Assembly (NCBI GenBank): GCA_022844165.1
Contig: JALHMH010000001.1
Location: 64,001-128,000, forward strand
Length of the DNA: 64,000 nucleotides
Direction: 5' to 3'
Source of the DNA: Lysobacterales bacterium
Lineage (GTDB): Bacteria > Pseudomonadota > Gammaproteobacteria > Xanthomonadales > SZUA-5
Made by a program: the position numbers and the translations under genes. Under the pieces are notes generated by a model, which worked only from the letters and a program-made list of their open reading frames with translations, made no database searches and was not told where the DNA came from. Of this stretch, positions 3 to 24,071 are shown piece after piece (the stretch's first letter is position 1; the number at the start of each line of letters is the position of its first letter).

Positions 3-2576
3 GCGTCCGGCGGCGATGCCGAACTGAATTCCGCACTCAAGGATCTATTTGAGCTGGCGCAGGTGTCGGGACATCAAGCCGAAGACCTGGCGCCAGCTGC
101 GGCCGGTCTGCTCGCACAGATGGTTGCGCCGAACGACCCTGCCGTGGCGTGTCTATTGCAATTATTCGCCGGCATGCATCGCATCTTCGACGAGCACGAA
201 GCGCGCGCCGAACTGCGGGCACATATGGCGCGGACGCTGCTCGAGGGTTGGCAGACTCGCGCCGGATCGGAGTTGACCGCCCTGCATGCGGCGCTCAGTT
301 TCCTGCGCGCCAGCGCGCACTGGAAAAACAGTCAGCTCGCAAAGCTGATGATCGCCTTCGAGCCATCGCTGCGTTCGGTTTCGGCCGCGGTCAAAATTTC
401 CAGAGTGGCCGCTGAACTTGCCGATCAAGCCAGCGCTGCGGTCCTGCGCGACTATCCGCATTACGCCGAACGAATTGGCGAAAGCGGTTGCGCCGCGACG
501 CGCCGTGACAACTACTTTACCGTCTTGCGGCTGGCACAAGTTCTGGGTGGGGCCAACGCATCGCCCAAAGAAACGATGGTGTGGTGGTGGTTGAGCACGA
601 TCGGCGTCTATCTGCGCAATCGCGATCAGTCTGTGATGCAAGGCAACCTGCGCGCCATCGTGCACGCGCTGACGCCGCATTTAAGAGTCGAAGAACTGCT
701 GATCTGCAGCGATATCCTGACGGCCGTGTACCGGAAGGGATTGGCAATCGACATCCCGCGCGATCTGGGCGTCGGATCGGTGTTGAACTTTCGACAAATG
801 GCCGAGCGCGGCCCGTTATGGCGTAGCGCGTTCACCATGCGCCGTGCCGCATCGCCCCACCACGGCCTGCTCGGCGACTACTTGAAAACTTACGCCGCGG
901 CCGACACCGAAGGCGCGGCTGTGATCGATGTTTGGCGCAACTTCGCGGCACAGTGGCAGGCGCTGGGCGATCCGGCGATGGCCTGGTCGGAACTGTCGGC
1001 ACAGGTGTCCCAGGCGATCCGCGCCGTGGGCGCGAATCGGTTGCAGTCGGCTTGGGTTCGCGAGCTGCGAGTATTTGGCGCGATGCCCGAATGCGCCATG
1101 CACCATTTGTTGTTGGCGCAAGGCCTGGAGCGAGTGCAACTGGTGGCCTTTGGGTTGAACCTGGCGCCGCGCATCGCCGAGTTGTCTGCATTGATGGGAC
1201 GCTCAGCGCATGTTCTGCCGGAAACGCCAGAAGGTCGCGGCGAGTTGTTCGCGCACAAGGGCGAGCGTGACCTGGCGCTACTGCTGAATGTGTTGGCGGA
1301 GGCCTGCTGCAGTGGCGATCAAGGTCTCGCAACACTGAATGCTGGACGCTATCTGCTCGAGTGTATCCTGCCCTACGTTCCGTTCTCCGAACAGAGCTGG
1401 GCTTCGGTTTGGGCGGTTGCACTCGCGGAACTCCTGCCGACGTCGTGCGCACCGGTGTCGGCCGCGGCGCAGCGCTGTTTTGCGCTGCTCAATGCCCTCA
1501 CCCGCCAGGCGGATATGCTACGTGCGGTAGGGCAGGAGATTTTTGTCCCCACCTTGCCGGTGTTTTCCGACGATCCGGCACAGGAGGCAGAGTGGCGTGC
1601 GCTGGCCTCCGGGTTAATGGTGGCCGCTGCGGCTGCAGACGCTGGTCTGCCGGGGGAGGCGCTGGCGCAGAGTCTCGCGCTGGCGACTCCATTGTTTGCA
1701 GAGCAGGCAGTCACCTTGTGGCAGGAAGCCAAAGCGCCGCTTTGTGCGTTGCTTGGAAAATCGCTGTCGCCCAGTTTGCGCTCTGCGCTCGACGGCGTCT
1801 GCGCCGCGCTCGACCGCACGCTTGGCGCCGAACGGATTTTTCAAGGCGCTCCGGCGAGCTCGGCCCTGGATCTGGCATTGGCGCTACGCAGCGCCGACCC
1901 GTACTCGCTGGCGATCTGGCGCTGCGATCGCGTTACGCGGGTGCAGCGGGAAGGTCTGACCACACCGCTGCCGGGGGATCTGACCATGTCCCGCGCAAGC
2001 GGTTGGCAGTGCCCAGAAATGCTCGCCATTCGCCGCGCGATTTCCCACCTCAGCGAATGCACGGCGCTAGCGCCACAGAATGCTGCGCCGGGCCGGCAGG
2101 ACTTCCAGCTCGGGTTACAGCGCCTGGCCTGGTCTACCGCATTCCTGCGCGATGGTATGGGCAACGCACTGGCGCCATGGCTGACGAGCTCGTTGCTCGG
2201 CGGCGAGTGGTACGCACTCGATCTGCCGACGCTCGTGGCGTGGTCCGAGGCATGCATCGGTGAACTCGACGAGCGCTTCGGCGACGACTCGACGCTGGTC
2301 GCGCGGCTGCATGAGGCACTGGCCAGCCTTTGGCTGCCAACCGCTGCCACTCAAAGCGCTGCGGAGCTGCCGGTACGTCAGGGCAATGCACTTGAGCAAC
2401 GGAGTCTTGCCAGTTTTCTGCTGGGTCAGTCCGCACCCAATACACCAGAAGAATCAGCCCGCGGGATGGCGATCGTTCATGCCTCCGGTTGGTTTCAACG
2501 ACTCACCACCTCGCATCAAGCCAGGGTAACGTCGGCGCTGCGCGCAGGTCGCTACCGCGGGAGCCTGCCGGCATGA
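3..2576 (+). CDS. Large helical protein with repeated phycobiliprotein/globin-like segments (5'-truncated by window edge)
   Basis: The frame is open from position 3, with no stop before the GTG at 63. Segments RDYPHY..GCAATRRDNYFTVLRLAQ, HKGERDLALLLNVLAEA and GRQDFQLGLQRLAWS resemble the phycobiliprotein CxRDxxxxLRxxxY helix. The stop overlaps the next ATG (ATGA). Confidence 0.55.
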   Translation, partial: ASGGDAELNSALKDLFELAQVSGHQAEDLAPAAAGLLAQMVAPNDPAVACLLQLFAGMHRIFDEHEARAELRAHMARTLLEGWQTRAGSELTALHAALSFLRASAHWKNSQLAKLMIAFEPSLRSVSAAVKISRVAAELADQASAAVLRDYPHYAERIGESGCAATRRDNYFTVLRLAQVLGGANASPKETMVWWWLSTIGVYLRNRDQSVMQGNLRAIVHALTPHLRVEELLICSDILTAVYRKGLAIDIPRDLGVGSVLNFRQMAERGPLWRSAFTMRRAASPHHGLLGDYLKTYAAADTEGAAVIDVWRNFAAQWQALGDPAMAWSELSAQVSQAIRAVGANRLQSAWVRELRVFGAMPECAMHHLLLAQGLERVQLVAFGLNLAPRIAELSALMGRSAHVLPETPEGRGELFAHKGERDLALLLNVLAEACCSGDQGLATLNAGRYLLECILPYVPFSEQSWASVWAVALAELLPTSCAPVSAAAQRCFALLNALTRQADMLRAVGQEIFVPTLPVFSDDPAQEAEWRALASGLMVAAAAADAGLPGEALAQSLALATPLFAEQAVTLWQEAKAPLCALLGKSLSPSLRSALDGVCAALDRTLGAERIFQGAPASSALDLALALRSADPYSLAIWRCDRVTRVQREGLTTPLPGDLTMSRASGWQCPEMLAIRRAISHLSECTALAPQNAAPGRQDFQLGLQRLAWSTAFLRDGMGNALAPWLTSSLLGGEWYALDLPTLVAWSEACIGELDERFGDDSTLVARLHEALASLWLPTAATQSAAELPVRQGNALEQRSLASFLLGQSAPNTPEESARGMAIVHASGWFQRLTTSHQARVTSALRAGRYRGSLPA

Positions 2577-3090: not shown

Positions 3091-3750
3091 ATGGCTATCG
3101 ATCCAGTACTAGGCGGCGTCCAGGGTTTCCACAATTACTACACGCCCGACGAGTTTTTTCGCCACGATCCCACGGAGGGCTCGATTTATCTGCGCGATGG
3201 CCAGCGCGCGGCCAAGATTTCCGAGGCCTTCATCAACGGACTGCACACCGGAATCGAAGAGGAAGTCGGCAACAGCTCAGGACTGCTGATGTATCGGTGC
3301 GGTCAAGAGTGGGCGCTTGCCGACATGAAACGTTTCTCAGCGCGAATGCGCCAGGAGTTCGGTGGCGGAAAGCTCGACATCTGGCAGATGAACCCGGCTT
3401 TCGTTTGGGAGTGCTGGTGGTGGCCTTTGGCGATCGAAGGATACGGCGGATGGACCTTGGATCTGAGCTTTGCGGACAAGGACATTACGCTGATCGAAAT
3501 CCGCAACTCGGCCGTCGCCAAGTCCATGAAGATGGTCGGCCGCCCGGTCTGCCACATGTACGCGGGGTTGTTTGCCGGCGCCTTCAGCTTTTTTCACCGC
3601 AAGGAGCTGCAGAGCATTGAGGTGCAGTGTTACGCGATGGGCAACGACGTCTGCAAGTTCCTGGTCGGCGACGAGAAACGCGTCAACGCTGCAGAATTCT
3701 GGCGAGAAGAGGGTGCCAGCGCGCAAACCATTCGGGAAAATCTCGCCTGA
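3091..3750 (+). CDS. V4R (4-vinyl reductase) domain protein
   Basis: GYGGW helix-turn, PVCHMYAGLFAGAFS, EVQCYAMGNDVCKF with the C/E/C/C metal ligands typical of V4R. Confidence 0.9.
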   Translation: MAIDPVLGGVQGFHNYYTPDEFFRHDPTEGSIYLRDGQRAAKISEAFINGLHTGIEEEVGNSSGLLMYRCGQEWALADMKRFSARMRQEFGGGKLDIWQMNPAFVWECWWWPLAIEGYGGWTLDLSFADKDITLIEIRNSAVAKSMKMVGRPVCHMYAGLFAGAFSFFHRKELQSIEVQCYAMGNDVCKFLVGDEKRVNAAEFWREEGASAQTIRENLA

Positions 3751-3762
3751 GGCGGAACATCC

Positions 3763-5928
3763 ATGATGACAACTCCTAACAGTCAATTGCTTGAACTCGG
3801 CGCTTTCTTTCGCGAAGTTGTCGAAGGCATCGCCGATAGCCAGGCCGGGCGTCGCCCCCCACCTAAGGCCGAGATGCCGACTCTTGATGGCGCTGTGCTG
3901 CTCGACTCGATGCGGGCGATCGTTACCGAGGAACTGCAAGGACTGGCCAGGACGCAGCCACTGCTCGGAAGTGATGATGCCGCGCTACGCGAGGCCCAGG
4001 CCGTGGCCGCCGACAGCGCGCGCCGTATCGAAGAGCTTGAGCTTGCCCACCAGCAGCGCGAGTTGGCGCTGCGCCAGCAGTTGCACGAACGCTACGAGGA
4101 GCAACTGCAAGCCGAACGCAGTCGCCAGGCGCTGGTTGACGAGCGAGTCATCACGCTCGAAAACCGGTTGGATGTCAACGAGACCACCAGACAAAGTCTC
4201 GAATCCGAGCTTCGTGAGCGCAGCGATTTGCTGGCGGTGCTGCGTTCCGAGCTCAACCACATGCATGAGCAGGCGCAGCATCTGGAGCGCAACCATGCGC
4301 TACTGGTCGGCCAGATCGATGAACAAACCGAGCGCGATCGCCAGCGGCAGGCGGAGTTCGATGCTTGCCAGGCGCAACGGGACGAAGCGCTGCGGGCGTT
4401 TGCGCTGCAGGAAGACACCGTCGCTGTCTTGAATGCCGAGCTGGAACAGGCGCGCAACGATCGGCAATCTCAACAGACCAGCGCCAACAGCCTGCGGCTT
4501 GAGTTCGAAGCGAAATTCGAAGAGCGAGAATCGGAAGCGCTGCACATGCTGCTGGCCGCAGAGCAGCGCGCGCGTGAGGATCGTCAGACGTACATAGAAC
4601 AGATCCATCAGTTGACCGAAGCGCTCGATGCCGAGCAACTGCAAAATGCGCAACTCAAGGACGCGATTCTGGTGCTGGAGGCGCAGGCCGAAAACGCTTC
4701 AGACGTGCAGGCATTCGCAGCGGAATTCCAGGCCAAAGACCAACAGCAACAATCCGAACTGAGCGAATTGCGCGAGGCACTGAAGGCCGGGCAAGAGCTC
4801 GCCGAACAGCTTCAGAGCGAACTCGCGTCGGTGCAAACCGCTGCGGTTGCAGACGCAGAGAGGTTGGCGGAGCAACTGCGAGTACGAGAAGAAGAACTGC
4901 AAGTCAAGACCGCCGAATTGGATGGCGCACTGCTCGGCGAACACGCACGCACCGCTGAGTTGCAAGCCGAAATCGCGACACTGCGCGAAGCGCTCGATTC
5001 CGAATCAGCAGCGCGTGCCGCTGACCGAGCACTTCTCGAGGCGCAGCTCAGCACGGAACAAACGCTTACCGTGCAGCTGCAGGCCAACATCGCGCGCCTT
5101 GAGCAAGAGGCACAACACCGGCAGCAGGCCGACGATCGACGCTCGGAATTGACTCAGGCGTTGGATGCCGAGAGAGCGCAGACCGCTCGTCTGAAGACCG
5201 AGATCCTGCAGTTCGAAGCGCGCGTAGCAGCGGCTGCCGAAGCGAACACCAGAATGCTGGCCGCGGTGCAGGAGCTGAGCAGCAAACAATTGCTCGAACT
5301 TGGCAGCGCGCTGAAATCTGAGCAGACATTGACTGCGCAACTGTTGGCCGACATTCAGGCATTGGAAGCACGATCGAATGAGCAGGATCTGGCGCTGGCG
5401 CAAGCGCAAGCGGCTGCCGATGCCGATCGTCACGCACGGCTCGAAGCGCAAGCCGCAGCTCAGGCGCGGGAGCAGGCGCTGATCGAAGCACGCTCGCAGT
5501 TGCAAGCGCTCAACGACCAACAAGAGGCGTCCAGGAAGCGCGCGTCAGTGGGATTCCTGGCGGGGCTTGGAGAGACACCGCCGGTTGATGCATCGCCGAG
5601 CGCAGCGCAGGCTGCCATCGCCGCTGCACCTGTCGCCCCTGCTCCTGTGGCCGCTGCGGTACAAGCCGCTGTAGCACCGATGAGCGCTGTGGAGTTAGAG
5701 CGCGAACAGAAGCGACTGGCGATTCTGAGCCAAAGTACCGATGTGGCCACGGCCAAACTCTATTTCCAGATGCTGCCCTGGCAAGGACTCAAGACCTCTC
5801 GAATTTCTGTTGCCGCAAATGAAAGGGGCGACCCCAGTGGCACGCTCGCTGGTTTTGCTGTCGCCGCCGCTACCCAACAGGCAATCGATTCCAGTCTTTC
5901 AACTCAACCGACGAAGGCCAGACCATGA
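3763..5928 (+). CDS. Long coiled-coil protein, function unknown
   Basis: 721 aa E/Q/A/L/R-rich heptad sequence, an Ala/Pro linker and a short C-terminal YFQMLPWQG motif. Coupled to the next gene by an ATGA overlap. Confidence 0.75.
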   Translation: MMTTPNSQLLELGAFFREVVEGIADSQAGRRPPPKAEMPTLDGAVLLDSMRAIVTEELQGLARTQPLLGSDDAALREAQAVAADSARRIEELELAHQQRELALRQQLHERYEEQLQAERSRQALVDERVITLENRLDVNETTRQSLESELRERSDLLAVLRSELNHMHEQAQHLERNHALLVGQIDEQTERDRQRQAEFDACQAQRDEALRAFALQEDTVAVLNAELEQARNDRQSQQTSANSLRLEFEAKFEERESEALHMLLAAEQRAREDRQTYIEQIHQLTEALDAEQLQNAQLKDAILVLEAQAENASDVQAFAAEFQAKDQQQQSELSELREALKAGQELAEQLQSELASVQTAAVADAERLAEQLRVREEELQVKTAELDGALLGEHARTAELQAEIATLREALDSESAARAADRALLEAQLSTEQTLTVQLQANIARLEQEAQHRQQADDRRSELTQALDAERAQTARLKTEILQFEARVAAAAEANTRMLAAVQELSSKQLLELGSALKSEQTLTAQLLADIQALEARSNEQDLALAQAQAAADADRHARLEAQAAAQAREQALIEARSQLQALNDQQEASRKRASVGFLAGLGETPPVDASPSAAQAAIAAAPVAPAPVAAAVQAAVAPMSAVELEREQKRLAILSQSTDVATAKLYFQMLPWQGLKTSRISVAANERGDPSGTLAGFAVAAATQQAIDSSLSTQPTKARP

Positions 5929-6524
5929 GCACAGTCGCGGCAAATGTTCGTCCCCAGAGCCAGACGCTCAGAAAGCACGCGTTGCTCAAGGAACTCTTTC
6001 GGCGTGCGGAAGGCAGGCATTGGAGCGAAGAGGAACTTAGTCTCTACGCCAAGAGCGCCCCGGAATTCATGGAACGCGTACATGCCGCAAGGGCAATCGC
6101 TCGACATGAAACGGCGGTTGTCGAAAAGACCGTGACCGAAATATTCGCCAGCTACCCATTCACCAAGTACCACGCGTTGGCCGAAATCAAAGCGCCGCGC
6201 GACATCACACAGGTCAGTGTGTACGCCACGGCCGCCATGCTGATGAACGATCACGACTGGTTTCGAGATCGGGTGTTGTTGTGGCTCAAAACCATGCTGC
6301 AGGCATTCGTCTTCCCCAAGCGCGAAGCGGCCAGTCAGCGGACCTTATTCGGCAACCGGGCGGCCACCAACAATCCCGCCGAGAGCATGCCGCAGCGTAA
6401 ACAGGCCGTGTTCGAAACCTACGTTGTGCTCAAACGCAATTACCAGCAGGCGCTTGAGGCCGCGGACTACGCGCAATTTGAGCCTTACCTGCAACAGATC
6501 ATCGACACCCTGTCGGCGGACTAA
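5925..6524 (+). CDS. Allophycocyanin/phycobilisome-protein-like globin-fold protein lacking Cys
   Basis: AEGRHWSEEEL (cf. AxGRYLSxxEL), RVHAARAI, KAPRDITQVSVYATAAMLMND..FRDRVLLWLKTML (cf. CxRDxxxxLRYxxxAMLxxD). Confidence 0.8.
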   Translation: MSTVAANVRPQSQTLRKHALLKELFRRAEGRHWSEEELSLYAKSAPEFMERVHAARAIARHETAVVEKTVTEIFASYPFTKYHALAEIKAPRDITQVSVYATAAMLMNDHDWFRDRVLLWLKTMLQAFVFPKREAASQRTLFGNRAATNNPAESMPQRKQAVFETYVVLKRNYQQALEAADYAQFEPYLQQIIDTLSAD

Positions 6525-6530: not shown

Positions 6531-7229
6531 ATGAGCGCGATGATGAATCAAGCACCAGTCTTGCCAGAAGCCGGCGGCACCGCGTTGACCGCCGGTACGT
6601 CCAGTGCGCGTTTTGCTTCCATGTTGGAGATCGATAGTCTGAACTTCGATTTGTACGAAGGCACGGTGGTCGACCCCAGCGATACCCGCAGCATCTTCCT
6701 GGCAACCGACATTTTGCGTGGCATCCACGCCGCTTTGTCCTATGAAGCTGGCCAGGCTTGGACAATCGTGCTCTATCGCTGCGGTTTTTTATGGGGACAA
6801 AAGACCCTGCGGCATTTCGTGCGCCAATCGCAAGGCGCCTTCGGCGCAAAGTTCGAGCAGATCAGCGTCGACGTTTTCTTGAGCAACCTGATCACTTTCA
6901 TGAACTTCAATGGCTGGGGTGTGCTCAGCATCGACATGCAGCGCGCGACGACGCATGGCGTGCTCCGCATGGAGTTGCGCAAGAGCATTTTCGCCGATGC
7001 CCTCGACCATCTCCGCGAACGCGTGGACTTCATGGTCGCTGGAATGCTGGCTGGCGTATTCAGCGACCTGTCGCGCGCCAGCCTGGCGTGCATTGAAGTA
7101 AGTTCTTCGCTGACCGGCGGCTCGAACTCTGTGTTCCTGTTGAGCGCCAGCGAGCGCATTGAAGCGCTGCGCCCGGCATTGGAAGGCGGCGCCGACGAAC
7201 GCGAGCTGATCGAGCTTCTGTGTGGCTGA
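6531..7229 (+). CDS. Second V4R domain protein (metal-ligand Cys largely lost)
   Basis: LYRCGFLWG, NGWGVLSID, DFMVAGMLAGVFS, CIEVSS..SVFLL. Similar to 3091..3750. Confidence 0.85.
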   Translation: MSAMMNQAPVLPEAGGTALTAGTSSARFASMLEIDSLNFDLYEGTVVDPSDTRSIFLATDILRGIHAALSYEAGQAWTIVLYRCGFLWGQKTLRHFVRQSQGAFGAKFEQISVDVFLSNLITFMNFNGWGVLSIDMQRATTHGVLRMELRKSIFADALDHLRERVDFMVAGMLAGVFSDLSRASLACIEVSSSLTGGSNSVFLLSASERIEALRPALEGGADERELIELLCG

Positions 7230-9162: not shown

Positions 9163-9803
9163 CCAACCACACTGCGCCCGCCATCAATGGCGCCACGCCC
9201 TCCGTGCATTGCGTCTTTTACACTCACCCGTGGGCCATCGATGCGCTGCGGGTTGCCAAACTTGGCGAACTGGATCGGACGCTGCTCATCGAACTGGCGC
9301 GGCGCTCGCAACTGGCGAGCTTGATCAACACCCAACAACAGCTGCGGTCTGGCGTGAGCGGCATCCTGCGCGATCCCGGTGAACTCGACGGGCTGATCGT
9401 CACGACACCGCGGTTCCTGGTACCCGTGATCCTTGCGCCCAATCCTTGCGTGCCGGATGCAACACAAGCCTCGGCGATCGCTCTTTTGCCATCCGTGAAG
9501 TCGAGCTTCAATCGCTTCATCGTGTTTGTACATCTGTCAGAGGCAATGAACTTCCGCTACGCGTATCCGTATTGCGATCGTTTTTCGTTTCTCTGGGACG
9601 TCGCAGACCCTCCGATGTTCAAAATGGGCGATATCGGCGCGATGCTGCGCGATCTGGGTGTGCTCAGGCGCGAATCCTGGGGAGGATTTTACTTGTTCAA
9701 TCATCCACGGCGGCATGTGAGCAATCTGGACAGCCGGCTGAGCGAATTGCGAAAGGTGATGGGGCAGGCGAAAAAGCCCAGCGCTCTCGCCGCAACAGCC
9801 TAA
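9159..9803 (+). CDS. Hypothetical protein
   Basis: 214 aa ORF coupled to the kinase by an ATGA overlap. No family recognised. Confidence 0.6.
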   Translation: MTNHTAPAINGATPSVHCVFYTHPWAIDALRVAKLGELDRTLLIELARRSQLASLINTQQQLRSGVSGILRDPGELDGLIVTTPRFLVPVILAPNPCVPDATQASAIALLPSVKSSFNRFIVFVHLSEAMNFRYAYPYCDRFSFLWDVADPPMFKMGDIGAMLRDLGVLRRESWGGFYLFNHPRRHVSNLDSRLSELRKVMGQAKKPSALAATA

Positions 9804-15425: not shown

Positions 15426-16127
15426 CTAACCGTCGCCAATCGACTGAGTGGCATCGAAGGTTTGCATCATCAACGCAACCTGCGTGCGATTGCGCGCGTC
15501 CAGTTTTTGCATGATCGACTTCATGTGCACCTTGACCGTCGCTTCGGTGATCTGAAGTTGTGCTGCGATCTGTTTATTCAACATCCCGGTTGCCAACATG
15601 CTGGCAATACGGAACTGTTGTGCGCTGAGCGCTCCAATCTGGCGTGCCGCCGACTGCTCTTTCGAGCTCAATTGTGGTACGAACCCCAACTCGCTCAGTG
15701 AAGCAGGAATGTAGCGCGAACCGGACAGCACCTGGCCGAGCGCCTTGGAAATTTCCCGCAACGGTGCGGATTTGGGAATGAAGCCCGCTGCGCCCAGCTG
15801 CAGAGCCCGGCGGATCGTCAGTGGCTCTTCCTGCGCCGAGATGACGGCAACGCTCAGGCCAGGCGACTTCGCGCGCACGTGGATCAGGCCCGACAAACCA
15901 TGCGAGCCGGGCATGTTCAAGTCGAGCAAAACCAGATCGACGTTTTGATCGCGATTGAGCAGATCCTGAAGGCAATCCAGCGTATCGGCCTCCAACACGG
16001 ACGCCGACGGGAAGTTGGCGCCTACACAAGAAACCATCGCGTGCCGGAACATCGGATGGTCGTCCGCAACGATAATCGTCCCGACTGCCTTGATGTCGAT
16101 CAGGTGGGGACTGAACAAACTAGACAT
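15426..16127 (-). CDS. NarL/LuxR family response regulator
   Basis: IVADDHPMFR, LLDLNMPG, GAAGFIPK and a LuxR HTH (NKQIA..L.ITEATVKVH). Start set at ATG 16127, which overlaps the heme oxygenase end. Confidence 0.93.
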   Translation of the reverse strand: MSSLFSPHLIDIKAVGTIIVADDHPMFRHAMVSCVGANFPSASVLEADTLDCLQDLLNRDQNVDLVLLDLNMPGSHGLSGLIHVRAKSPGLSVAVISAQEEPLTIRRALQLGAAGFIPKSAPLREISKALGQVLSGSRYIPASLSELGFVPQLSSKEQSAARQIGALSAQQFRIASMLATGMLNKQIAAQLQITEATVKVHMKSIMQKLDARNRTQVALMMQTFDATQSIGDG

Positions 16128-16848
16128 GCACGTGCTGCGCTGCGTGCGCAAATGGGCAGCCCAACGATCCTTGGCGTGCCGGGCGTGGCGCAGGCATGGC
16201 GACTTCGCCAAGCCATGCGCTCAGCGAGCCGAAGACGAAGCGCGCAACGTCGATCATGCGATTCTCATCGAGGTCGGTTGTGTTTTCGATCTGTTGAATG
16301 GTGCGTCTCCATACCTGCCCGTGCGCGCCGTCATAACAATCGAAGTATGTCACCGCGTTAGCGACAGTCTGACCCAGATGTTCGTTGAGCGCGCGGCGAA
16401 TCACTTGTCCGCCCAAGGTGGCGCCTTCGAACACATACACCACGCCGGCGCGCGTCGACTCATCGTGGCAATCCAGTTCGTCGAATACTGGCGAACTGGT
16501 ACTCCGGGGGAAGTCGCGCATACCGACGGCGGCGAGATCGGATTCAAGCTTCGGTGTGCGCTGGCAGGCGAGGTTGAAGACGGCATGTTGTGCCTGCGCC
16601 ATACGCAACTCCAGGGGTCCCACATAACCCAGCAGCCGCAGCAGCAACAGCCGATACTCATTCAGGCTGTAATCTGGCTCTAGCAGCCGGCGCATGCAGG
16701 GCACGGCCTCGATCATGTCGTGGGCCTGGCGTGTGTTTAGTCGCAAGCGCTGAATGCGCGATGTGGAGCGATCGCCATGCAGATCGCCCGATTCGCCGGA
16801 TAGCGACGCGGCTGGCAAAGTCGTTAGCAACACAGCTTTGGATCCCAT
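16120..16848 (-). CDS. bphO: Biliverdin-producing heme oxygenase
   Basis: LRLNTRQAH (proximal His) and YVFEGATLGGQVI distal helix. Co-oriented with a phytochrome-like kinase. Confidence 0.9.
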   Translation of the reverse strand: MGSKAVLLTTLPAASLSGESGDLHGDRSTSRIQRLRLNTRQAHDMIEAVPCMRRLLEPDYSLNEYRLLLLRLLGYVGPLELRMAQAQHAVFNLACQRTPKLESDLAAVGMRDFPRSTSSPVFDELDCHDESTRAGVVYVFEGATLGGQVIRRALNEHLGQTVANAVTYFDCYDGAHGQVWRRTIQQIENTTDLDENRMIDVARFVFGSLSAWLGEVAMPAPRPARQGSLGCPFAHAAQHVHV

Positions 16849-17057
16849 CGGCCTTGTTGGTCGACATAGTGGTGAAATGTGTGCTCACAGTCCCTACCAC
16901 TTTGGTTTTATTGCACGCAAGCCCCCTGCTGACCATGCTTAGGCGGCGTCCAGGGTTTCGAGTCGGACTTGGGTGCCGCTAGTGCAAGATGCGCCGTCTG
17001 GCGGGCAAGAGCGCTCTTACAACTCGGTTTGTTGCAACTAAATTTCGGAGATTCGCC
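16849..17057. promoter_or_regulatory. Divergent intergenic control region between bphO and gvpA
   Basis: Head-to-head genes. Contains the nested inverted repeat AGTGGT..TGTGTGCTCACA..ACCACT (~16868-16901), the perfect palindrome AAGAGCGCTCTT (17007-17018) and a GGAG RBS before gvpA. Confidence 0.55.
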
Positions 17058-17276: not shown

Positions 17277-17286
17277 CAGGGTACCC

Positions 17287-17326
17287 GTTCGCCGGAGGTC
17301 CGCCTCCGGTGAACTTCTTTTCCTTT
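17287..17326 (+). terminator. Stem-loop with U-rich tail after gvpA
   Basis: GTTCGCCGGAGG-TCCG-CCTCCGGTGAAC followed by TTCTTTTCCTTT. Confidence 0.7.
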
Positions 17327-17348
17327 CAACTGCGCAGGCGGCAAGACA

Positions 17349-17873
17349 ATGGACCAGCAGTTTCCTGGAGATATCGCGCCGCTGATGCGCGCATGCGCCG
17401 ATCTGGCGCGACGACGTGCCGACGATCTGGCGCGTGTCCGGACATCGGTAAGCCAGCTCAAGAACAATCTCGCGCGCACGCTGGTGCAGTTCGACCATGC
17501 GCGCAATGAGAGCGCGGCGCGAATTCAGGCGCTCCGCGCGCAGACGACGCAGTCGCTTGCCGATAACCGTCGTGAACGCAGCCAACAGCTTGCCGACTTC
17601 CGCGCGCGACTGGCAAAAGACCATGCTCGTACCACGGAGCAAACGCGCCAGGCCCTGGGCAGTTTTCGCGACGCGCTGCAAGCGGCGGTGAGTGACATCA
17701 AGAAACAAACTCAGGTTGCAAAGCGTGCGCGGTTCAAGACCGGTTCGTTCCGTCATGCGGCGGCACCGGCCAAGCCACCGAGCCGTCCGACATCTGTCGC
17801 AGACACGGCACCCATCGCGCGCAAGCGCAACCGGTCCGGCGCGAACGACTCGCGTAGTTTCCTCGACCTATGA
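17349..17873 (+). CDS. GvpC-like helical gas vesicle protein
   Basis: Lies between gvpA and gvpN. Amphipathic R/A/Q-rich helices with recurring L..F and a basic tail. Confidence 0.55.
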   Translation: MDQQFPGDIAPLMRACADLARRRADDLARVRTSVSQLKNNLARTLVQFDHARNESAARIQALRAQTTQSLADNRRERSQQLADFRARLAKDHARTTEQTRQALGSFRDALQAAVSDIKKQTQVAKRARFKTGSFRHAAAPAKPPSRPTSVADTAPIARKRNRSGANDSRSFLDL

Positions 17874-19075
17874 GCACCTTTGCAGGCGTGGACGAGTTGG
17901 ATCCCGCGGGGCAAGTCTCCGTCGAACCCAGCGCTGGTTTTGTATTGACGCCGGCGGTTTCGCTGATTGCGGATCGCGCGCTGGCGTATCTGCGTGCCGG
18001 GTATCCCGTCCACCTCTGCGGCCCAACCGGCACCGGCAAGACCACGCTGGCATTTCATGTTGCCAGCAAGTTAGAGCGCCCAATCGTTCTGCTGCACGGC
18101 GATCATCAATTGACCAGCGCTGATTTGGTCGGTTCGCCCTCTGGCACGCGCACTTCGCGCGTGGTCGACAACTACATCCGGTCGGTTGTTCGCACCGAGG
18201 AGGAGCGGCGCGAGTTGTGGGTCGACAATCGGCTCACGACGGCATGCCGCTACGGGCACACGCTCATCTACGACGAATTTAATCGCACGACCGCGGAAGC
18301 CAATAACCCGCTGCTTAGCGTCTTTTCCGAAGGCATTCTGAATTTGCCGAAGGCCAGCGACGGGCGCGAAAGCTATCTGCGCGTGCATCCAAAGTTCGCA
18401 GCAATATTGACGTCGAATCCCGAAGAGTACGCTGGCGTGTTTCGCACCCCAGACGCCTTGCTGGATCGCGTCATTACCATCGTGCTCGACTATTACGACG
18501 GCGAAACCGAGACCAGTATCGTGGCAGCGCGTACTGGCGTCGATTTCGACTTCGCGCATCAGATTGTCGCGATGGTGCGTGGCTTGCGCAACGCCGGTAG
18601 CAGTGCACATCGCCCAACCATTCGCGCCGCCATCACCATCGCCAAAGTACTCAAACAGTCAGGGCTCCCCATTTCCAGCGAACCGGTCGTACGCTCGATT
18701 TTTGCCGATGTGCTCGGCGCCGATCCTTTCAAGATCTTGTTGAGCTCGACGGCACCCGGTTCTACCGGAGCGGCGGCCGATTCCCCGGCGTCGGACGAGT
18801 TCAAACCAGCCGATCAAGATTTTGATGCGGCGCCGTCAGTCGTGGTCGCCCCTGATGAGCCTGGTACAAGCGCGATGCGGGCGGAAGAAGCCCCCGACAG
18901 TCCGATACTGGAAGTGTCTGGCGCAACGATGCCAGCGGAGCTGGCGCGGGCCATGCCAGCCGAACCGCTGGATGAGCGCGAACAGAAGCGCGCGGCCCGG
19001 CAGAGAAAACGTGGCGGCCAGCCGGCAGCTGCCTGGTTGAATGCGTTCGACGAACGCAGCCCACAAACTTCCTGA
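17870..19075 (+). CDS. gvpN: Gas vesicle AAA+ ATPase GvpN
   Basis: GYPVHLCGPTGTGKTT, WVDNRLTTAC, YDEFNR, SNPEEYAGV, DALLDR. Confidence 0.97.
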   Translation: MSTFAGVDELDPAGQVSVEPSAGFVLTPAVSLIADRALAYLRAGYPVHLCGPTGTGKTTLAFHVASKLERPIVLLHGDHQLTSADLVGSPSGTRTSRVVDNYIRSVVRTEEERRELWVDNRLTTACRYGHTLIYDEFNRTTAEANNPLLSVFSEGILNLPKASDGRESYLRVHPKFAAILTSNPEEYAGVFRTPDALLDRVITIVLDYYDGETETSIVAARTGVDFDFAHQIVAMVRGLRNAGSSAHRPTIRAAITIAKVLKQSGLPISSEPVVRSIFADVLGADPFKILLSSTAPGSTGAAADSPASDEFKPADQDFDAAPSVVVAPDEPGTSAMRAEEAPDSPILEVSGATMPAELARAMPAEPLDEREQKRAARQRKRGGQPAAAWLNAFDERSPQTS

Positions 19076-19086
19076 GCGCCGAAGCG

Positions 19087-19383: not shown

Positions 19384-19389
19384 GCAATC

Positions 19390-19662
19390 ATGAAAATGAG
19401 CAAGTCCCCCGTTCTGCAAATCCACGAGCAAATCAAGGGCAACCTGATCGAAATGCTCGGTGCTCGTGAATTCCGCGTCGTCGGCATGCAAAAGCTGGAT
19501 GCCGGTTGGTCGGCTGATGTCGAGGTGTACGTGCGCAATCCGCAACTGAGCATCTCGAACGACGCCGGTAGCAAGGATATGCTGACGCGCTGCCGCTACC
19601 GGGTAGACTTCGATGCGGATTTGCAGATGAGCGGCTTCACCGAGACTGAATTCGACTCATGA
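19390..19662 (+). CDS. GvpO/GvpR-like gas vesicle protein
   Basis: VVGMQKLDAGWSADVEV...YRVDFDADLQMSGF resembles the GvpO GWxxxVEV...YxVxLD pattern. Confidence 0.65.
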   Translation: MKMSKSPVLQIHEQIKGNLIEMLGAREFRVVGMQKLDAGWSADVEVYVRNPQLSISNDAGSKDMLTRCRYRVDFDADLQMSGFTETEFDS

Positions 19663-20390
19663 GCCTGCTCCTGTATGGCATTACCAAGGCCGAGGTTTCG
19701 CTCCCTGGCGAACTCGCTGGCGTATCCGATGCGCCGGTGAGACCGATAGTCGTCGGTCCCGTGTCGATGTGGGCTTCGGATTACGATGGTGTAGAAGTGT
19801 CTCCGCGGCGCAAAAATCTGGCCGGTTTCCAAGGGGTTGTGAACCATATTTCGGCGCAGCACGATATGTTGCCGGCTGCATTCGGCATGCTCGCCGCCGA
19901 TGAGGACGAAGTGACCGCACTGCTGAGCCGGCATCGTGCCGTGCTGCTTTCGGAGCTCGATCGCGTCGCCGGTGCTTGCGAGTACGCCTTCCGCTTACGC
20001 TTTGTCGGCGAAAATTTGTTCGCCGATTTTGTCGAGCGCTTCGCTGAAATCCGAGCGTTGCGCGATCGCGTGTTCGAGGGCGGCAAGGCACCAACGCAAA
20101 ATGAGCGCATCCAGCTCGGCCAGAGTTTCGAGAAGCGCCTGCAGAGCGAGCGTGCGCGCATTCTGGAGTTGATGGTCAAGTGCTTCGAACCCAGCATCCG
20201 AGAATGGATGGAATTGAACTTCGAAAACGAACAAGTGCTTTGCAACGTCGCGTTGCTGGTCGATCGTGGTCAGGTCGCCGCGCTCGATGCGGCAGTCGAA
20301 GGTTTCGCTGCACGGTTCGACGACTTCCATCTGGTGGAGCTGTTGGGCCCCTGGCCGCCTTACAGTTTCGCCGAACTGCGTTTGGATTAG
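19659..20390 (+). CDS. gvpF: GvpF/GvpL family gas vesicle protein
   Basis: LLYGI, MLPAAFG, NVALLVDR, GPWPPYSF. Confidence 0.92.
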   Translation: MSLLLYGITKAEVSLPGELAGVSDAPVRPIVVGPVSMWASDYDGVEVSPRRKNLAGFQGVVNHISAQHDMLPAAFGMLAADEDEVTALLSRHRAVLLSELDRVAGACEYAFRLRFVGENLFADFVERFAEIRALRDRVFEGGKAPTQNERIQLGQSFEKRLQSERARILELMVKCFEPSIREWMELNFENEQVLCNVALLVDRGQVAALDAAVEGFAARFDDFHLVELLGPWPPYSFAELRLD

Positions 20391-20394
20391 TGAG

Positions 20395-20604
20395 ATGTTT
20401 GGCACTGGCTTGTTGATGGGCGTGATGCGCGAGATCGACAAGGCCGTGCAGGGTGAACTCGATAGCGAGCAAGAGGGCATCTTACGGAAACTGCGCCAGT
20501 TGCACCGAGCGATCGAACTCAAAGAAATCGATGAAGATACGTTCGAGGAGCGGGAGACGCAGCTCCTGGAGCGGCTGGAAACCATCAAACGGATGCGGCG
20601 CTGA
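20395..20604 (+). CDS. gvpG: Gas vesicle protein GvpG
   Basis: EIDEDTFEERETQLLERL motif, directly after gvpF. Confidence 0.88.
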   Translation: MFGTGLLMGVMREIDKAVQGELDSEQEGILRKLRQLHRAIELKEIDEDTFEERETQLLERLETIKRMRR

Positions 20605-20625
20605 CCCAATGAGTCGTTCGAACTG

Positions 20626-20865
20626 ATGCAGCGCCATGACGCCAACGAGTTGTACCTTTCGGACCTGCTTGATCGTCTGCTGGACACCGGTGTCGTGCTG
20701 CGTGGGCACATCACGATCAGCGTTGCCGACATTGAGCTGGTGTACCTCGACATCAGTGTGGTGCTGGCGTCCGTCGAGCGCGCGTTGAAGTGGCAACACG
20801 CCGAATCGTTGGCAGATCGGCAGATACCTGGGGTGCGCAATGTCGATCGAACCGTCCTCCATTGA
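20626..20865 (+). CDS. GvpA/GvpJ-family protein (GvpS-like)
   Basis: LSDLLDRLLDTGVVLRGHITISVADIELVYL. Confidence 0.88.
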   Translation: MQRHDANELYLSDLLDRLLDTGVVLRGHITISVADIELVYLDISVVLASVERALKWQHAESLADRQIPGVRNVDRTVLH

Positions 20866-21157
20866 ACAGGGCCTGGCGGCCCTGCTGAGCCGCCAGAGCC
20901 GCGTCGACCTGGCCGACCCCGCCGCTGGCGTGAATGGCCTGGCGCAGCTGGTGCTTACGTTGATCAAGGTGATCCACGAGTTGCTCGAAAAACAAGCGCT
21001 GCGGCGCTTCGAGGCCGGTTCTTTGACCGATGAGGAAGCCGAAAAACTGGGCAGCGTGCTGATGGCGCAGGCCCGCGAACTGAAAGCCTTGTGCGTACAC
21101 TTCGGCCTCGACGAGCGCGACCTCACGCTCGATCTTGGCCCGCTGGGAAAACTCTAA
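20840..21157 (+). CDS. gvpK: Gas vesicle protein GvpK
   Basis: GLAQLVLTLI..LLEKQALRR.E.GSL...E.LG..LM...DL.LDLGPLGKL. Confidence 0.95.
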   Translation: MSIEPSSIEQGLAALLSRQSRVDLADPAAGVNGLAQLVLTLIKVIHELLEKQALRRFEAGSLTDEEAEKLGSVLMAQARELKALCVHFGLDERDLTLDLGPLGKL

Positions 21158-21165
21158 GGATGCAT

Positions 21166-21501
21166 ATGTCACGCGACGAGCCACGCAACATGGTGCACTC
21201 GACCCACAGCACCAATCTGGCCGATCTGCTGGAACGATTGCTCGACAAAGGCGTGGTGATCAGCGGCGATATTCGCATCAAGTTGGTGGATATCGAATTG
21301 TTGACGATCCAGATTCGTCTGGTGATCTGCTCGGTCGATCGTGCGGTGGAGATGGGCATGGACTGGTGGCGGCACAACCAGTATTTCCAGAAGGGTACCG
21401 ATGCCGATCCGGCGCAACTGGAACGCATCGCCGATCGCCTGGATTCGCTTGAACGCCGCCTCTCGGCGCTACCTGTTGAGGTCCCTGATCGCCATGAGTG
21501 A
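21166..21501 (+). CDS. gvpJ: Gas vesicle protein GvpJ
   Basis: NLADLLERLLDKGVVISGDI..IELLTIQIRLVICSVDRA.EMGMDWW. AAGGA RBS before ATG 21166. Confidence 0.9.
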   Translation: MSRDEPRNMVHSTHSTNLADLLERLLDKGVVISGDIRIKLVDIELLTIQIRLVICSVDRAVEMGMDWWRHNQYFQKGTDADPAQLERIADRLDSLERRLSALPVEVPDRHE

Positions 21502-21997
21502 CAAGAATCTTTTTGCCGATTTGCTTCGTGGTTTGGGTGGTGCGCTTGAAAGTCTGGGTGAGGCGATCAACAAACAAACCGACGGCAAGCCGCGTGTTGA
21601 AGTGAAGCGCAGCGTCAAAATGCGCTCGGCGGATGGCAGTAGCGGTAATCCGCTGGACGATCTAAAAGATCTTGCCAATCGGCTCAAAGAAAACACCAGC
21701 CCGCCGATACCAAGATCGCGAACCTTGAAACTTGAGGTGCACGAAGAAGATAACCAGGTATTCGTGGTCATCCAGCAGGCCGGTTTGCAAGCGGACAATT
21801 TGCAGATCGCGATCGACGGAGACATGCTTGAGTTGCGGGCAGAACAACCCGAAGGCCGTTACCATGGCGAGGCGCTGTTGCCTTGCGCCGTCAAGAAAAG
21901 TTCGCAAACGCTGACCGATCGTGCCGGACTGCTCGAGCTGCGCTGGCAGAAACTACGTCTCACGCGAACTCGCGCGGCACCGAAGCGCTCACCCTGA
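21494..21997 (+). CDS. Hsp20/alpha-crystallin-like protein (GvpH-like)
   Basis: EVHEEDNQVFVV...IAIDGDMLELRAE..RYHGEALLP...GLLELR alpha-crystallin pattern. Confidence 0.8.
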   Translation: MSDKNLFADLLRGLGGALESLGEAINKQTDGKPRVEVKRSVKMRSADGSSGNPLDDLKDLANRLKENTSPPIPRSRTLKLEVHEEDNQVFVVIQQAGLQADNLQIAIDGDMLELRAEQPEGRYHGEALLPCAVKKSSQTLTDRAGLLELRWQKLRLTRTRAAPKRSP

Positions 21998-21998
21998 T

Positions 21999-24071
21999 AT
22001 GGCCAATCCGACAACGACCCTGATCATCCGCGAGGCGCGCCCGCAGGATGTCGGAAGGCAAATCGCGCGCATCGATCCGGCCGATATTCAACGCCTTGGA
22101 CTTCAAGTCGGCGGATTCGCGACGCTGCAACAAGGCGCCCACAGCACGGTGCTGCGCGTCATGCCTGCCTTCCCCGGCGAGCGTGGCAAGCGACAGGTGC
22201 AGATCGACCCGGCAACCCGGCAATTGTTGCAGGCAAGTCTGGGTCAAGAAGCTCTGTTGACGACGGTGGAATGCCCGCCGGCCAAAGAAGTCTGGCTGCG
22301 CGTGGATGATGGCTTGCCATTGTCGAGCAGCGCACAGGACTTTCTCGCCGAGTGGGTAGACGGTCTTGCGCTCAATGTCGGTGCGCTGCTGAAGCCTGAG
22401 GTTGGCGGACAGATTCGGCGGATCGTGGTTGAGCGCCTGCGCCCGGACGGGCCGTGCGTGGCGCTGCCGGAGACGCAACTGAAAATTGAGGTTCCCCAGG
22501 CGCGTGCAGCGCGTAAAGAGGTCACGCTGTTCGACGACATTGGGGGCCTGGAACGGGAAATCGAGAGCCTGCGGCAAATCGTTGAGCTGCCACTGAAGTC
22601 GCCTCAGGTGTTTGCCAAACTCGGCATTGCAGCTCCCCGTGGCGTGCTGTTGTACGGGCCGCCAGGCACCGGGAAAACGCTGATCGCGCGCGCCGTTGCC
22701 AGTGAGAGCCGAGCGAATTTTATCGCCATCAGCGCGCCGGAAATCGTCCATAAATTTTATGGCGAAAGCGAGGCCAAACTGCGCGAGTTGTTCGATCGAG
22801 CCCGCAAGCAGGCACCGGCAATCGTGTTCATCGACGAGATCGACGCGATCGCCGCGCGTCGCGATCAGGTGCAGGGCGAAGTCGAGAAACGCATCGTTGC
22901 GCAGTTGTTGACGCTGCTCGATGGCCTCGATGGTCGCGGCCAGATCATTGTGATCGGTGCCACCAATTTGCCGCAGGTTCTCGACCCGGCTTTGCGCCGG
23001 CCGGGGCGTTTTGATCGCGAATTGCTGATCAGTTTGCCCAGCGAATCGGCGCGGCGCTCGATTCTGGGCGTGCATACCCGCGGTATGCCGCTGGCCGCGG
23101 ACGTCAACCTTGATGAGCTGAGCCGTGAAACGCGTGGTTACAGCGGCGCAGATCTCAAGGCGCTGTGCCAGGAAGCCGGCATGCGTGTCGCAACGGCCGC
23201 AGCACGAGAGCCGGCAACCGAATTGGTCCTGCGCCAGGCCAACTTCGAAGCGGCGCTGCTGGATGTCGTACCGACATCCATGCGACAAGTCGATATCGAA
23301 GTACCAAACACGCCGCTCGAAGCGATTGGTGGCTTGCAGGAGGCCAAGCGGCTGCTCTGCGAGAACATTCTTTGGCCGATCGAAACGCCAGAGTTGTATC
23401 GCCATTTCAAGGTCAATCCGGCACGTGGTCTTGTGCTTCACGGCCCGCCGGGCACCGGCAAGACCCTGCTGGCACGCGCGATTGCCAGCGCCGCCAAGGC
23501 GAATTTCCTGGCAGTCTCTGGCCCTTCGTTGTTGTCGCGTTATGTCGGCGACTCGGAGCGCGCCGTGCGCGAATTGTTCGCGCGTGCCCGCCAGGCCACG
23601 CCGTCGATCATTTTTTTCGATGAATTCGATTCACTTGCACCAGCACGAGGCCGCAACGGCAGCAGCGAAGTCAGCGAACGAGTCGTTGCGCAACTTCTCA
23701 CGGAAATCGACGGGCTGACGCCGCGAGCACCGGTATGGCTGCTTGCCGCCACCAATCGCGTGGATTTGATCGACCCGGCGCTGCTGCGCCCGGGCCGCTT
23801 CGACGCCCTGGTGCCGGTCACCCTGCCCAGCCGCGACGACTGTCTCGCGATCTTGCGTGTAGCGCTGCGCGATCGGCCGCTGCAAGCCAACCTTGATCTT
23901 GAGTCACTTGCACCGTTTTGTGTCGGCCTTAGCGGGGCAGAAATCGTCGCTCGCGTCGACGACGCTGCTCTGCGCGCCATTCGCCGGACGCGCGAATCGC
24001 CAGGTGTGGAGGCATGTCTGGAGGAGCAGGATTTGAGCGCGACTTTCGGGCGCACTCCCAAAGCCGACTGA
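21999..24071 (+). CDS. CDC48/VCP-type double AAA ATPase
   Basis: N-domain DVGRQIARID; two GPPGTGKT Walker A; FIDEID and FFDEFD Walker B; LRRPGRFD and LLRPGRFD. Confidence 0.93.
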   Translation: MANPTTTLIIREARPQDVGRQIARIDPADIQRLGLQVGGFATLQQGAHSTVLRVMPAFPGERGKRQVQIDPATRQLLQASLGQEALLTTVECPPAKEVWLRVDDGLPLSSSAQDFLAEWVDGLALNVGALLKPEVGGQIRRIVVERLRPDGPCVALPETQLKIEVPQARAARKEVTLFDDIGGLEREIESLRQIVELPLKSPQVFAKLGIAAPRGVLLYGPPGTGKTLIARAVASESRANFIAISAPEIVHKFYGESEAKLRELFDRARKQAPAIVFIDEIDAIAARRDQVQGEVEKRIVAQLLTLLDGLDGRGQIIVIGATNLPQVLDPALRRPGRFDRELLISLPSESARRSILGVHTRGMPLAADVNLDELSRETRGYSGADLKALCQEAGMRVATAAAREPATELVLRQANFEAALLDVVPTSMRQVDIEVPNTPLEAIGGLQEAKRLLCENILWPIETPELYRHFKVNPARGLVLHGPPGTGKTLLARAIASAAKANFLAVSGPSLLSRYVGDSERAVRELFARARQATPSIIFFDEFDSLAPARGRNGSSEVSERVVAQLLTEIDGLTPRAPVWLLAATNRVDLIDPALLRPGRFDALVPVTLPSRDDCLAILRVALRDRPLQANLDLESLAPFCVGLSGAEIVARVDDAALRAIRRTRESPGVEACLEEQDLSATFGRTPKAD

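Follow-up and report, generated by a model that had tools for sequence, protein, structure and literature searches.

What would a non-photosynthetic, Xanthomonas-like water bacterium do with its own bilin pathway, a set of phycobiliprotein-like proteins and a cluster of gas-vesicle (gvp) genes, all encoded next to one another? The question is raised by the first 24 kb of a 64,000-nucleotide stretch (hereafter the window; bases 64001–128000 of contig C1) from the genome of a Lysobacterales bacterium, coded G000 (4.68 Mb in 59 contigs, completeness 99.97%, contamination 0.02), in which genes were called from a listing of open reading frames (ORFs) together with Pfam and NCBIfam scans. An initial annotation, made from the letters alone, had assigned the genes of this block, and every gene class that it named lies at the place it gave. 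The block belongs to an accessory island that joins three modules: an extended operon of the pre-1 pre-PcyA/BBAG type on the + strand, an operon of heme oxygenase (HO), a LuxR-type regulator and a hybrid histidine kinase on the − strand, and a gvp cluster. New are the extent of the island, a conserved operon larger than described, the loss of chromophore or attachment residues from the phytochrome and small globin of G000, and the finding that gvp genes, despite rearrangement, adjoin the pre-PcyA/BBAG cluster in four genomes (two families within the host's order) as well as on two metagenome contigs. From this synteny we consider the chances about even that the island couples a bilin-based sensory module to buoyancy.

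The linkage is seen in G000 itself, in two relatives from the host's family (G018 and G011) and in a member of another family of the same order (G126). Among 39 relatives searched, the operon's ferredoxin-dependent bilin reductase (FDBR) is present in G000, G018 and G011, which represent three genera, and all three carry a full gvp cluster beside the operon. In G018 the order is HO, gvpA through to the gene of a CDC48-type ATPase, a second gvpF/L, a GGDEF-EAL gene, a 717-aa protein, a giant protein, the Fe-S gene through to FDBR, reductase, kinase, LuxR and HO; in G011 it is HO-LuxR-kinase-gvpA through to CDC48, gvpF/L-2, GGDEF-EAL, the 717-aa protein, the giant, and Fe-S through to FDBR. The G126 contig has gvpA through to CDC48 beside LuxR, GGDEF-EAL, the giant, Fe-S, V4R and, at the contig edge, the start of the globin gene. 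HO is divergent from gvpA in both G000 and G018, and LuxR takes that place in G126. Two metagenome contigs (L065 and L070; FDBR 59–62% identical) keep the G000 order, FDBR-ferredoxin reductase-phytochrome-LuxR-HO-gvpA, through gvpG. Gene order differs among G000, G018 and G011, and the adjacency of the gvp genes persists. In a sample of 149 genomes of the order, the gvpF/L family PF06386 matches in six. Three of these (G000, G018 and G126) proved, on reading of their contigs, to have a full gvp cluster, in each case with the operon beside it, the other three being G005 and G013, which have a gvpA plus gvpF/L pair only, and G133, which falls below the cut-off. Such minimal pairs (L045 11422-12500 and L046 10087-11184) come from another genus of the host's family and showed no further gvp genes by tblastn; a related GGDEF-EAL gene lies beside them too. 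Between G000 and G018/G011, identity is 46% for FDBR, 60–65% for GvpN and 57–60% for the CDC48-type ATPase, against 70–72% for seryl-tRNA synthetase. These island values are comparable to that of the synthetase, which speaks for an old linkage, one that has survived rearrangement, over a transfer shared recently.

The same survey supplies part of what weighs against a coupling of bilins to buoyancy. Cluster counts refer to 23 loci in genome contigs (tblastn and family hidden Markov models, HMMs) and 23 metagenome loci (tblastn), many of the latter short. No gvp gene lies within ±10 kb of FDBR at any of the 23 genome loci, reading of the whole contigs being what revealed the gvp genes of the two host-family relatives among them, and 21 of the 23 metagenome loci, many short, have none in the available sequence. 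Beyond the host's order, PF00741 occurs in a single pre-1 genome out of 21, and there on other contigs. The expectation of the initial annotation that the two gene sets would be linked elsewhere is borne out among relatives of the host's order and fails outside it, where no more than that single genome has any gvp gene. In L068, close to L065, the reductase is followed not by phytochrome, HO and gvp but by KfrA, amidase and CHAD genes. Kinship among the genomes that do show the linkage means that they cannot count as independent instances, and the link is lineage-specific, confined to one order. As the main rival reading, the bilin/globin operon and the gvp genes might be independent modules travelling in one island, the operon having the role that it has in the many bacteria without gas vesicles and gvp being regulated otherwise. 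The series FeS-V4R-globin-V4R-kinase-p214-FDBR, kept without gvp in Verrucomicrobiota, Betaproteobacteria and others, speaks for this, as do the different neighbours of the operon in L068 and the failure to find the island in G001, a genome of the same genus, which is what accessory DNA would lead one to expect. We regard it as a possible but rather doubtful account, since the adjacency has outlasted divergence at the level of families and no fewer than two rearrangements (four genomes, two families, two metagenome contigs), the three full gvp clusters among 149 genomes all have the operon beside them, and the only HO gene found in the genome is divergent from gvpA.

The island comprises ~30 kb of accessory DNA, from ~57.9 to 88.07 kb of C1 (window to 24071), as delimited by DNA similarity to G001, which stops at both borders, and by FDBR and PF06386, neither of which was found in G001. 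On the left, similarity to G001 extends to ~C1:57.0 kb, with one further gene whose G001 counterpart is 30 kb distant; on the right, it sets in again at window position 24143 with 83% identity, which sets the border at 24.07–24.14 kb. The two flanks lie on different contigs in G001, where the empty site could not be reconstructed. The block had been described as starting at base 3 of the window; it begins ~6 kb further upstream, with a second gvpF/L and the genes of a PAS-GGDEF-EAL protein and of a 717-aa two-domain phycobiliprotein-like protein. Because this second gvpF/L lies upstream, on the opposite strand, gvp genes flank the bilin operon on both sides. No tRNA genes were found at the island borders. 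The initial annotation had named a chimeric contig near 24.1 kb as a danger to its reading, and an assembly artefact joining the island to Xanthomonas-like core genes would suit a 59-contig assembly and the low depth at which the runs that contain the stretch cover it. Such a misjoin is very improbable: GC content is even across island and border (0.57–0.63), the island recurs in three further assemblies from the order, contamination is 0.02, and a 470-nt contig of a public run, possibly the source sample, bridges the right border (23898–24367) with 0 differences, leaving no obvious misjoin at that junction. One observation runs counter, a joint from 18048 to 25074 in three runs, with only 21 letters on its shorter side; joints of that kind often stem from other organisms or repeats. 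The stretch from 14000 to 30000 is present at low depth in four drinking-water metagenome runs of one study, and a small share of it in a lake-water run.

The reductase gives the operon its class. PF05996 matches it at 61.8 bits (cut-off 31), and its profile matches PcyA structures at 4e-17. When a 17-sequence profile is aligned with Synechocystis PcyA (2D1E), Glu85 takes the position of Asp105 and is invariant (17/17), Ser68 that of His88, and Glu60 that of Glu76. Pre-1 enzymes are described as having Glu at PcyA Asp105 and mostly Thr or Asn at His88 (bioRxiv 10.64898/2026.05.08.723791); the Ser of the present enzyme is neither. Its relatives are found in Opitutales and other Verrucomicrobiota, Thiotrichales, Thiomargarita, Agitococcus, Betaproteobacteria, Competibacterales, Chloracidobacterium and two metagenome-assembled genomes of the host's order, taxa that agree with the published pre-1 range of beta- and gamma-proteobacteria, Chloroflexi, Acidobacteria and others (PMC10151467; Rockwell, Martin & Lagarias 2023). 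By residue signature and gene context, the enzyme is best filed as pre-1.

Pre-1 and pre-3 pre-PcyA clusters of non-photosynthetic bacteria are reported to combine HO and an Fe-S protein with a pair of V4R proteins, of clades A and B, and with one or two bilin biosynthesis-associated globins (BBAGs), which are phycobiliprotein-like and whose functions "are not yet known" (PMC10151467). The locus resembles the pre-1 cluster in its HO, Fe-S protein, V4R and V4R-like proteins, phycobiliprotein-like globin and Glu-bearing FDBR, and in being borne by a non-photosynthetic gamma-proteobacterium; it differs in the Ser of FDBR at His88, rather than the more usual Thr or Asn, and in an Ala for the CXRD Cys of the small globin. 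The claim that no system of this composition had been described accordingly needs correction, both for this core and for the Bradyrhizobium island discussed below. The conserved operon is, however, larger than that of the published main text, with giant phycobiliprotein-like proteins, a Ser/Thr kinase and a MinD-fold protein added. The available main text of that paper describes no kinase, phosphatase, MinD-fold protein, giants, GGDEF-EAL protein or gas vesicles, and its figures or supplements may show unlabelled neighbours (PMC10151467); gas vesicles likewise go unmentioned in the text of the 2026 follow-up (Frascogna et al., bioRxiv 10.64898/2026.05.08.723791, also listed under Protein Sci.).

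The members of the operon (Table 1) are conserved to different degrees. The ferredoxin has orthologues of 70–79% identity in G018, G011 and G126, and the first V4R gene is the most conserved of the operon (77–94% identity in relatives). Of the two V4R proteins named initially, this one is recognized by its domain; the second has no Pfam match and is identified by its similarity to the first and by a position kept across clusters. The 721-aa coiled-coil protein, whose gene accounts for the AT skew of 0.23 of the stretch, matches no Pfam family and has weak orthologues in the host's order only. The Ser/Thr kinase adjoins FDBR at 14 of 23 loci in each of the two sets, genome and metagenome, and its C-terminal ~390 residues match no family. 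The next protein, p214, is detected by its family HMM at 14 of the 23 genome loci; its predicted structure matches MinD, FlhG and ParA in Foldseek (E ~1e-4, TM ~0.5), its sequence shows no P-loop of the GKT type, and it may be a pseudo-ATPase. The phosphatase scores 32.9 bits for DSPc, just under the cut-off of 33.5, and has orthologues in other clusters. Close relatives have the ferredoxin reductase 3' of FDBR in 13 cases (loci or contigs), among them several contigs that enter the count twice. At the head of the operon, the PAS-GGDEF-EAL protein has SAGEF at its cyclase site (GEDEF in G018), with EAL and DDFGTG intact, and is probably a phosphodiesterase only. HO, FDBR, ferredoxin and its reductase are all present, which fits the self-contained bilin pathway proposed at the outset, and HO, FDBR, the phytochrome module, the small globin and both giants each have a single match in the genome, inside the island (tblastn).

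Table 1. Features of the island and its right flank. Coordinates are window positions unless prefixed C1.
Feature	Coordinates	Strand	Evidence and remarks
Second gvpF/L	C1:57935-58702	opposite to operon	PF06386 3.2e-26
PAS-GGDEF-EAL protein, operon head	C1:58743-60578 (L028 10743-12578)	+	
C-terminal 857 aa of 1282-aa giant all-helical protein	3..2576, 5'-open	+	starts at C1:62728, upstream of the window
2Fe-2S ferredoxin, the "Fe-S protein" of pre-PcyA clusters	2573..3046	+	Fer2 3.5e-11; ORF opens at 2489, start at 2573 by reading
V4R protein	3091..3750	+	V4R 3.2e-17
721-aa Gln/Glu/Ala-rich coiled-coil protein	3763..5928	+	translation, composition
Small phycobiliprotein-like globin, BBAG-1 type	5925..6524	+	PF00502 5.8e-10; between the two V4R genes
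Second V4R-like protein	6531..7229	+	26% identity to first V4R, tblastn 6e-13
Ser/Thr protein kinase	7222..9162	+	Pkinase 4.8e-34
Conserved 214-aa protein (p214)	9159..9803	+	MinD/ParA/NifH-like fold, AlphaFold2 pLDDT 86
Dual-specificity-type protein phosphatase	9815..10300, start uncertain (ORF 9446-10300)	+	DSPc 6.3e-8
FDBR, pre-1 pre-PcyA signature	10297..10980	+	PF05996 (Fe_bilin_red) 9.7e-17
FAD/NAD(P)H ferredoxin reductase-type flavoprotein	10991..12163	+	Pyr_redox_2 6.5e-44, Reductase_C
Hybrid histidine kinase with degenerate phytochrome module	12209..15394	−	Pfam domains PAS_2-GAF-PHY-PAS-HisKA-HATPase-REC
REC-LuxR/GerE response regulator	15426..16127 (ORF opens at 16211)	−	Response_reg 3.7e-18, GerE 3.6e-18
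HO	16120..16848	−	PF01126 4.7e-11
19-nt element, HO-gvpA divergent spacer	16894..16912	+	shared with G018 (L038 870-888), same relative place
gvpA, 72 aa	17058..17276 (ORF opens at 16989)	+	Gas_vesicle 3.7e-16
174-aa helical protein, gvpC position	17349..17873	+	no family above cut-off
gvpN-type AAA+ ATPase	17870..19075	+	AAA_5 3.2e-15
Two small gvp-cluster genes, 98 and 90 aa	19087..19662	+	no family; same place in G018, G011, G126, L070
gvpF/L	19659..20390	+	GvpL_GvpF 6e-47
gvpG, gvpA-family (J/S-like), gvpK, second gvpA-family (J-like)	20266..21501	+	overlapping ORFs, starts uncertain; GvpG 8.1e-9, Gas_vesicle 7.5e-15, GvpK 6.5e-28, Gas_vesicle 3.8e-17
Hsp20-like protein, GvpH-like position	21341..21997	+	NCBIfam Hsp20 4.4e-9, far under cut-off; kept in relatives
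CDC48-type double AAA+ ATPase, last gene of island	21921..24071	+	AAA 4.2e-90, CDC48_N 7e-15, TIGR01243 4.7e-210
AdoMet-decarboxylase-like gene, Crp-family regulator, cyclopropane-fatty-acid-synthase-type methyltransferase, right of island	24144-28058		76-83% DNA identity with same-genus genome

Three proteins of the island are candidates for holding a bilin. Two phycobiliprotein-like proteins had been named in the window; the small globin is confirmed as the sole PF00502 match in the genome, and the second, the 5'-open frame at its left end, is recognized only through the profile of its family. The 1282-aa protein to which that frame belongs has a phycobiliprotein-like domain at residues ~520–680 (window ~285–765). 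Its own Pfam match reaches only E = 0.051, and the part inside the window has no Pfam or NCBIfam match at E<=0.01. The family is rare, with 81 representatives among 1.84e9 proteins, mostly of 1100–2100 aa, and is found directly upstream of the Fe-S gene at 10 of the 23 genome loci, including those of Verrucomicrobiota and Competibacterales. A profile of 34 members matches CpcA (phycocyanin alpha) at 3.6e-5 together with dozens of other phycobiliproteins; the match spans phycobiliprotein residues 4–107 and the family consensus is in register with the chromophore CXRD site. The attachment Cys is present in 12 of the 34 members and is replaced by Thr in the window protein. A profile of five sequences gave no phycobiliprotein match among solved structures, significance being reached only with 34, and an ESM Atlas search with residues 495–940 of the giant was uninformative (best score 0.82).

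The 717-aa protein was found only among relatives belonging to the host's order. It is a paralogue of the giant, whose HMM matches the G011 copy at 1.4e-13. PF00502 matches seven of nine family members at one consistent place (best 2e-5; one of nine over the cut-off), and the four best solved-structure matches of the family profile are all phycobiliproteins, aligned on both CXRD sites (E 0.13–0.62), where Cys is found in 8/9 and 9/9 members. At the corresponding site of the small globin, Cys is kept in 10 of 13 orthologues and replaced by Ala in the three from the host's order. Comparison of the small globin with the 717-aa family by hhalign gave a weak match at the CXRD region (41.6% probability), and comparison with the 1282-aa family and with p214 gave nothing. 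The loss of Cys from the small globin, together with two CXRD sites in a lineage-specific paralogue of the giant, suggests the 717-aa protein as the candidate for covalent attachment.

The three genes of the − strand lie between the bilin operon and the gvp cluster. With its start read at 16127, the LuxR gene has an 8-nt overlap with the stop of HO, and HO lies two genes upstream of the hybrid kinase on the same strand. The phytochrome module of the kinase is recognized by PAS_2 (1.6e-16), GAF (2.2e-4) and PHY (2.2e-8), and its best solved match is Xanthomonas BphP at 2.4e-24. In L065 the counterpart, alike in architecture and position, is canonical for a bacteriophytochrome and retains the Cys, the DIP motif and the His residues. 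The corresponding kinases of G018 and G011 have no PAS_2, GAF or PHY domain, so that what is conserved beside gvpA is HO with a LuxR-type regulator and a hybrid kinase, not a phytochrome. No family matches the first 200 residues of these two kinases; encoded beside LuxR and HO, they may form a sensor domain not yet recognised. After the reductase, G018 has first a GAF histidine kinase and then the hybrid kinase (L039 10638-12011 and 13507-15237).

The gvp cluster is transcribed divergently from HO and contains GvpA, GvpN, GvpF/L, GvpG, J-type and GvpK genes, all over their Pfam cut-offs. The start of gvpA was placed at 17058 on the sequence MAQVQK, common to G018 and G011. The 174-aa helical gene that follows is kept after gvpA in G018, G011, L065 and L070, and by that position might encode a GvpC. 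The gvpN-type ATPase is 60–68% identical in the gvp clusters of relatives, and the CDC48-type ATPase ends the cluster in all four carrier genomes of the order. The spacer between HO and gvpA contains a 19-nt element, with one degenerate position and a short ACCA-N3-TGGT inverted repeat, that lies ~165–175 bp upstream of gvpA in both G000 and G018, in surroundings that cannot be aligned. It matches once in the window (0.02 expected) and once among 64 loci, and was not found in G011 or G126.

The sequences establish gene identities, the island borders, the conserved linkage, single-copy status and residue states; from these we infer the following biochemical and regulatory route. HO would make biliverdin, consuming O2, and electrons would pass from NAD(P)H via the reductase and the ferredoxin to FDBR, which would reduce the biliverdin, probably to a phytochromobilin isomer by analogy with the characterised pre-1 enzyme, reported to yield 3E-phytochromobilin (bioRxiv 10.64898/2026.05.08.723791). 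The bilin would be held by globin-type proteins, in the host lineage probably by the 717-aa protein with its two CXRD cysteines. The state of the globins, set by light or by the supply of bilin, O2 or redox equivalents, could be relayed through the kinase and phosphatase, through hydrolysis of c-di-GMP and through the histidine kinase and LuxR regulator to the gvpA promoter region, so setting buoyancy. The cue might be light, or alternatively O2, heme or redox supply, given that HO needs O2 and that published BBAGs are photoinert. A wider version of this proposal, in which the pre-PcyA/BBAG cluster in general is a multi-protein bilin sensor (giants, small globin, V4R proteins and ferredoxin) read by the kinase and phosphatase, with flotation as its output in Xanthomonas-like water bacteria, seems to us unlikely on present evidence.

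Several properties of the components count against a bilin-responsive step. The phytochrome module of G000 lacks the N-terminal Cys: it starts 12 residues short of the Cys-bearing N-terminus of L065, with a stop two codons before its Met, and no GAF Cys is found beside the position of His260. Aligned with Xanthomonas BphP and with L065, it has lost the DIP motif and the two conserved His of the bilin pocket (the equivalents of His260 and His290): IYS replaces DIP, the first His gives way to Ser or a gap, and CQQ stands for CHH/CHN. Kinases without any phytochrome domain in G018 and G011 point the same way. The small globin has no Cys at all, with APRD in place of CXRD, and each line of evidence for globin domains in the 717-aa protein is weak when taken individually; Foldseek with its whole model (pLDDT 69) gave 0 matches at E<=0.001 and only generic helical repeats. 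In the published work, BBAGs are photoinert, the BBAG-1 tested bound bilin poorly and the attachment Cys of CXRD is present in "some" BBAG-1 (PMC10151467), and the first pre-1 enzyme tested showed little activity (bioRxiv 10.64898/2026.05.08.723791).

Photoinert globins would also suit a structural role. The giants, small globin and coiled-coil protein might build a pigmented assembly, such as a screening pigment or a primitive antenna-like array, rather than a sensor, with the kinase, phosphatase and MinD-fold protein controlling its assembly or placement. The operon encodes what such an assembly might require, namely three phycobiliprotein-like proteins, of which two are very large, a 721-aa coiled-coil protein and a MinD/ParA-fold protein, of a fold class known to position cell structures. 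We nevertheless judge the assembly improbable. Photo_RC and PsaA/B were searched for in this 99.97%-complete genome and none was found, the absence of photosystem genes being a point that the initial annotation wanted confirmed, which leaves an array no reaction centre to feed; p214 shows no GKT-type P-loop in its sequence; and the neighbourhood is dominated by signalling genes (kinase, phosphatase, EAL, histidine kinase). Published fluorescence yields of BBAGs are also low, 3–7% (PMC10151467). The sensory reading had been worded initially as antenna-derived proteins repurposed as sensors. This reverses the published phylogeny, in which BBAGs are sister to phycobiliproteins, phycobiliproteins arose within older bilin-binding globins, and pre-PcyA clusters are the proposed origin of PcyA (PMC10151467).

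Comparison with described systems helps to place the bilin-to-buoyancy reading. The photosynthetic Bradyrhizobium ORS278 is reported to carry a horizontally acquired island with the bacteriophytochrome BRADO1262, phycocyanobilin synthesis and gas-vesicle genes (PMC3899966). Both loci bring together, on proteobacterial accessory DNA, a pathway with a bilin reductase, a kinase of phytochrome type and gvp genes; they differ in that the ORS278 host is photosynthetic, that its reductase makes phycocyanobilin and that the passage describing it mentions no globin/V4R/Fe-S operon. A phycocyanobilin-forming PcyA with a phytochrome to bind its product, as in ORS278, is not what we see in G000, which has the pre-1 signature and a degenerate phytochrome pocket. 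Alpha-proteobacterial PcyA enzymes belong to the AX clade, with a stereotyped context unlike that of pre-PcyA clusters (PMC10151467). The bphO-bphP operons, exemplified by Xanthomonas campestris BphP (PDB 5akp), likewise combine HO with a PAS_2-GAF-PHY histidine kinase, from which the G000 kinase differs in lacking the N-terminal Cys, in having IYS for DIP and in having no His at either conserved position.

A further parallel is found in the Synechocystis genes slr0144-slr0152. The kinase SpkG (slr0152) has reportedly been linked to phosphorylation of ferredoxin 5, which recalls, by description, the kinase and 2Fe-2S ferredoxin of the island; what 10.1101/2021.08.27.457892 says on SpkG adds nothing to this parallel. 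The Synechocystis cluster differs in having no FDBR or HO and in being implicated in photosystem assembly and repair. Its Fe-S, V4R and globin genes are said to descend from pre-PcyA clusters, slr0150-slr0152 being adjacent to them, and the adjacent genes are often absent in cyanobacteria (PMC10151467). A literature search found no paper joining gas vesicles and gvpA with Xanthomonadales, and none on gas vesicles, heme oxygenase and bilin that seemed relevant by its title or the opening of its abstract.

For the pre-PcyA/BBAG family, whose function is an acknowledged open question, the gvp-linked lineage offers an output that is easily scored, namely gas vesicles. In view of the extended gene set, a reconstitution would also need to be composed differently, with the giants (10 of the 23 genome loci, across phyla), the kinase (14 of 23) and the MinD-fold protein (14 of 23) added. 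If true, the wider proposal of a multi-protein bilin sensor, with flotation as its output in Xanthomonas-like water bacteria, would be the first function assigned to the pre-PcyA/BBAG cluster.

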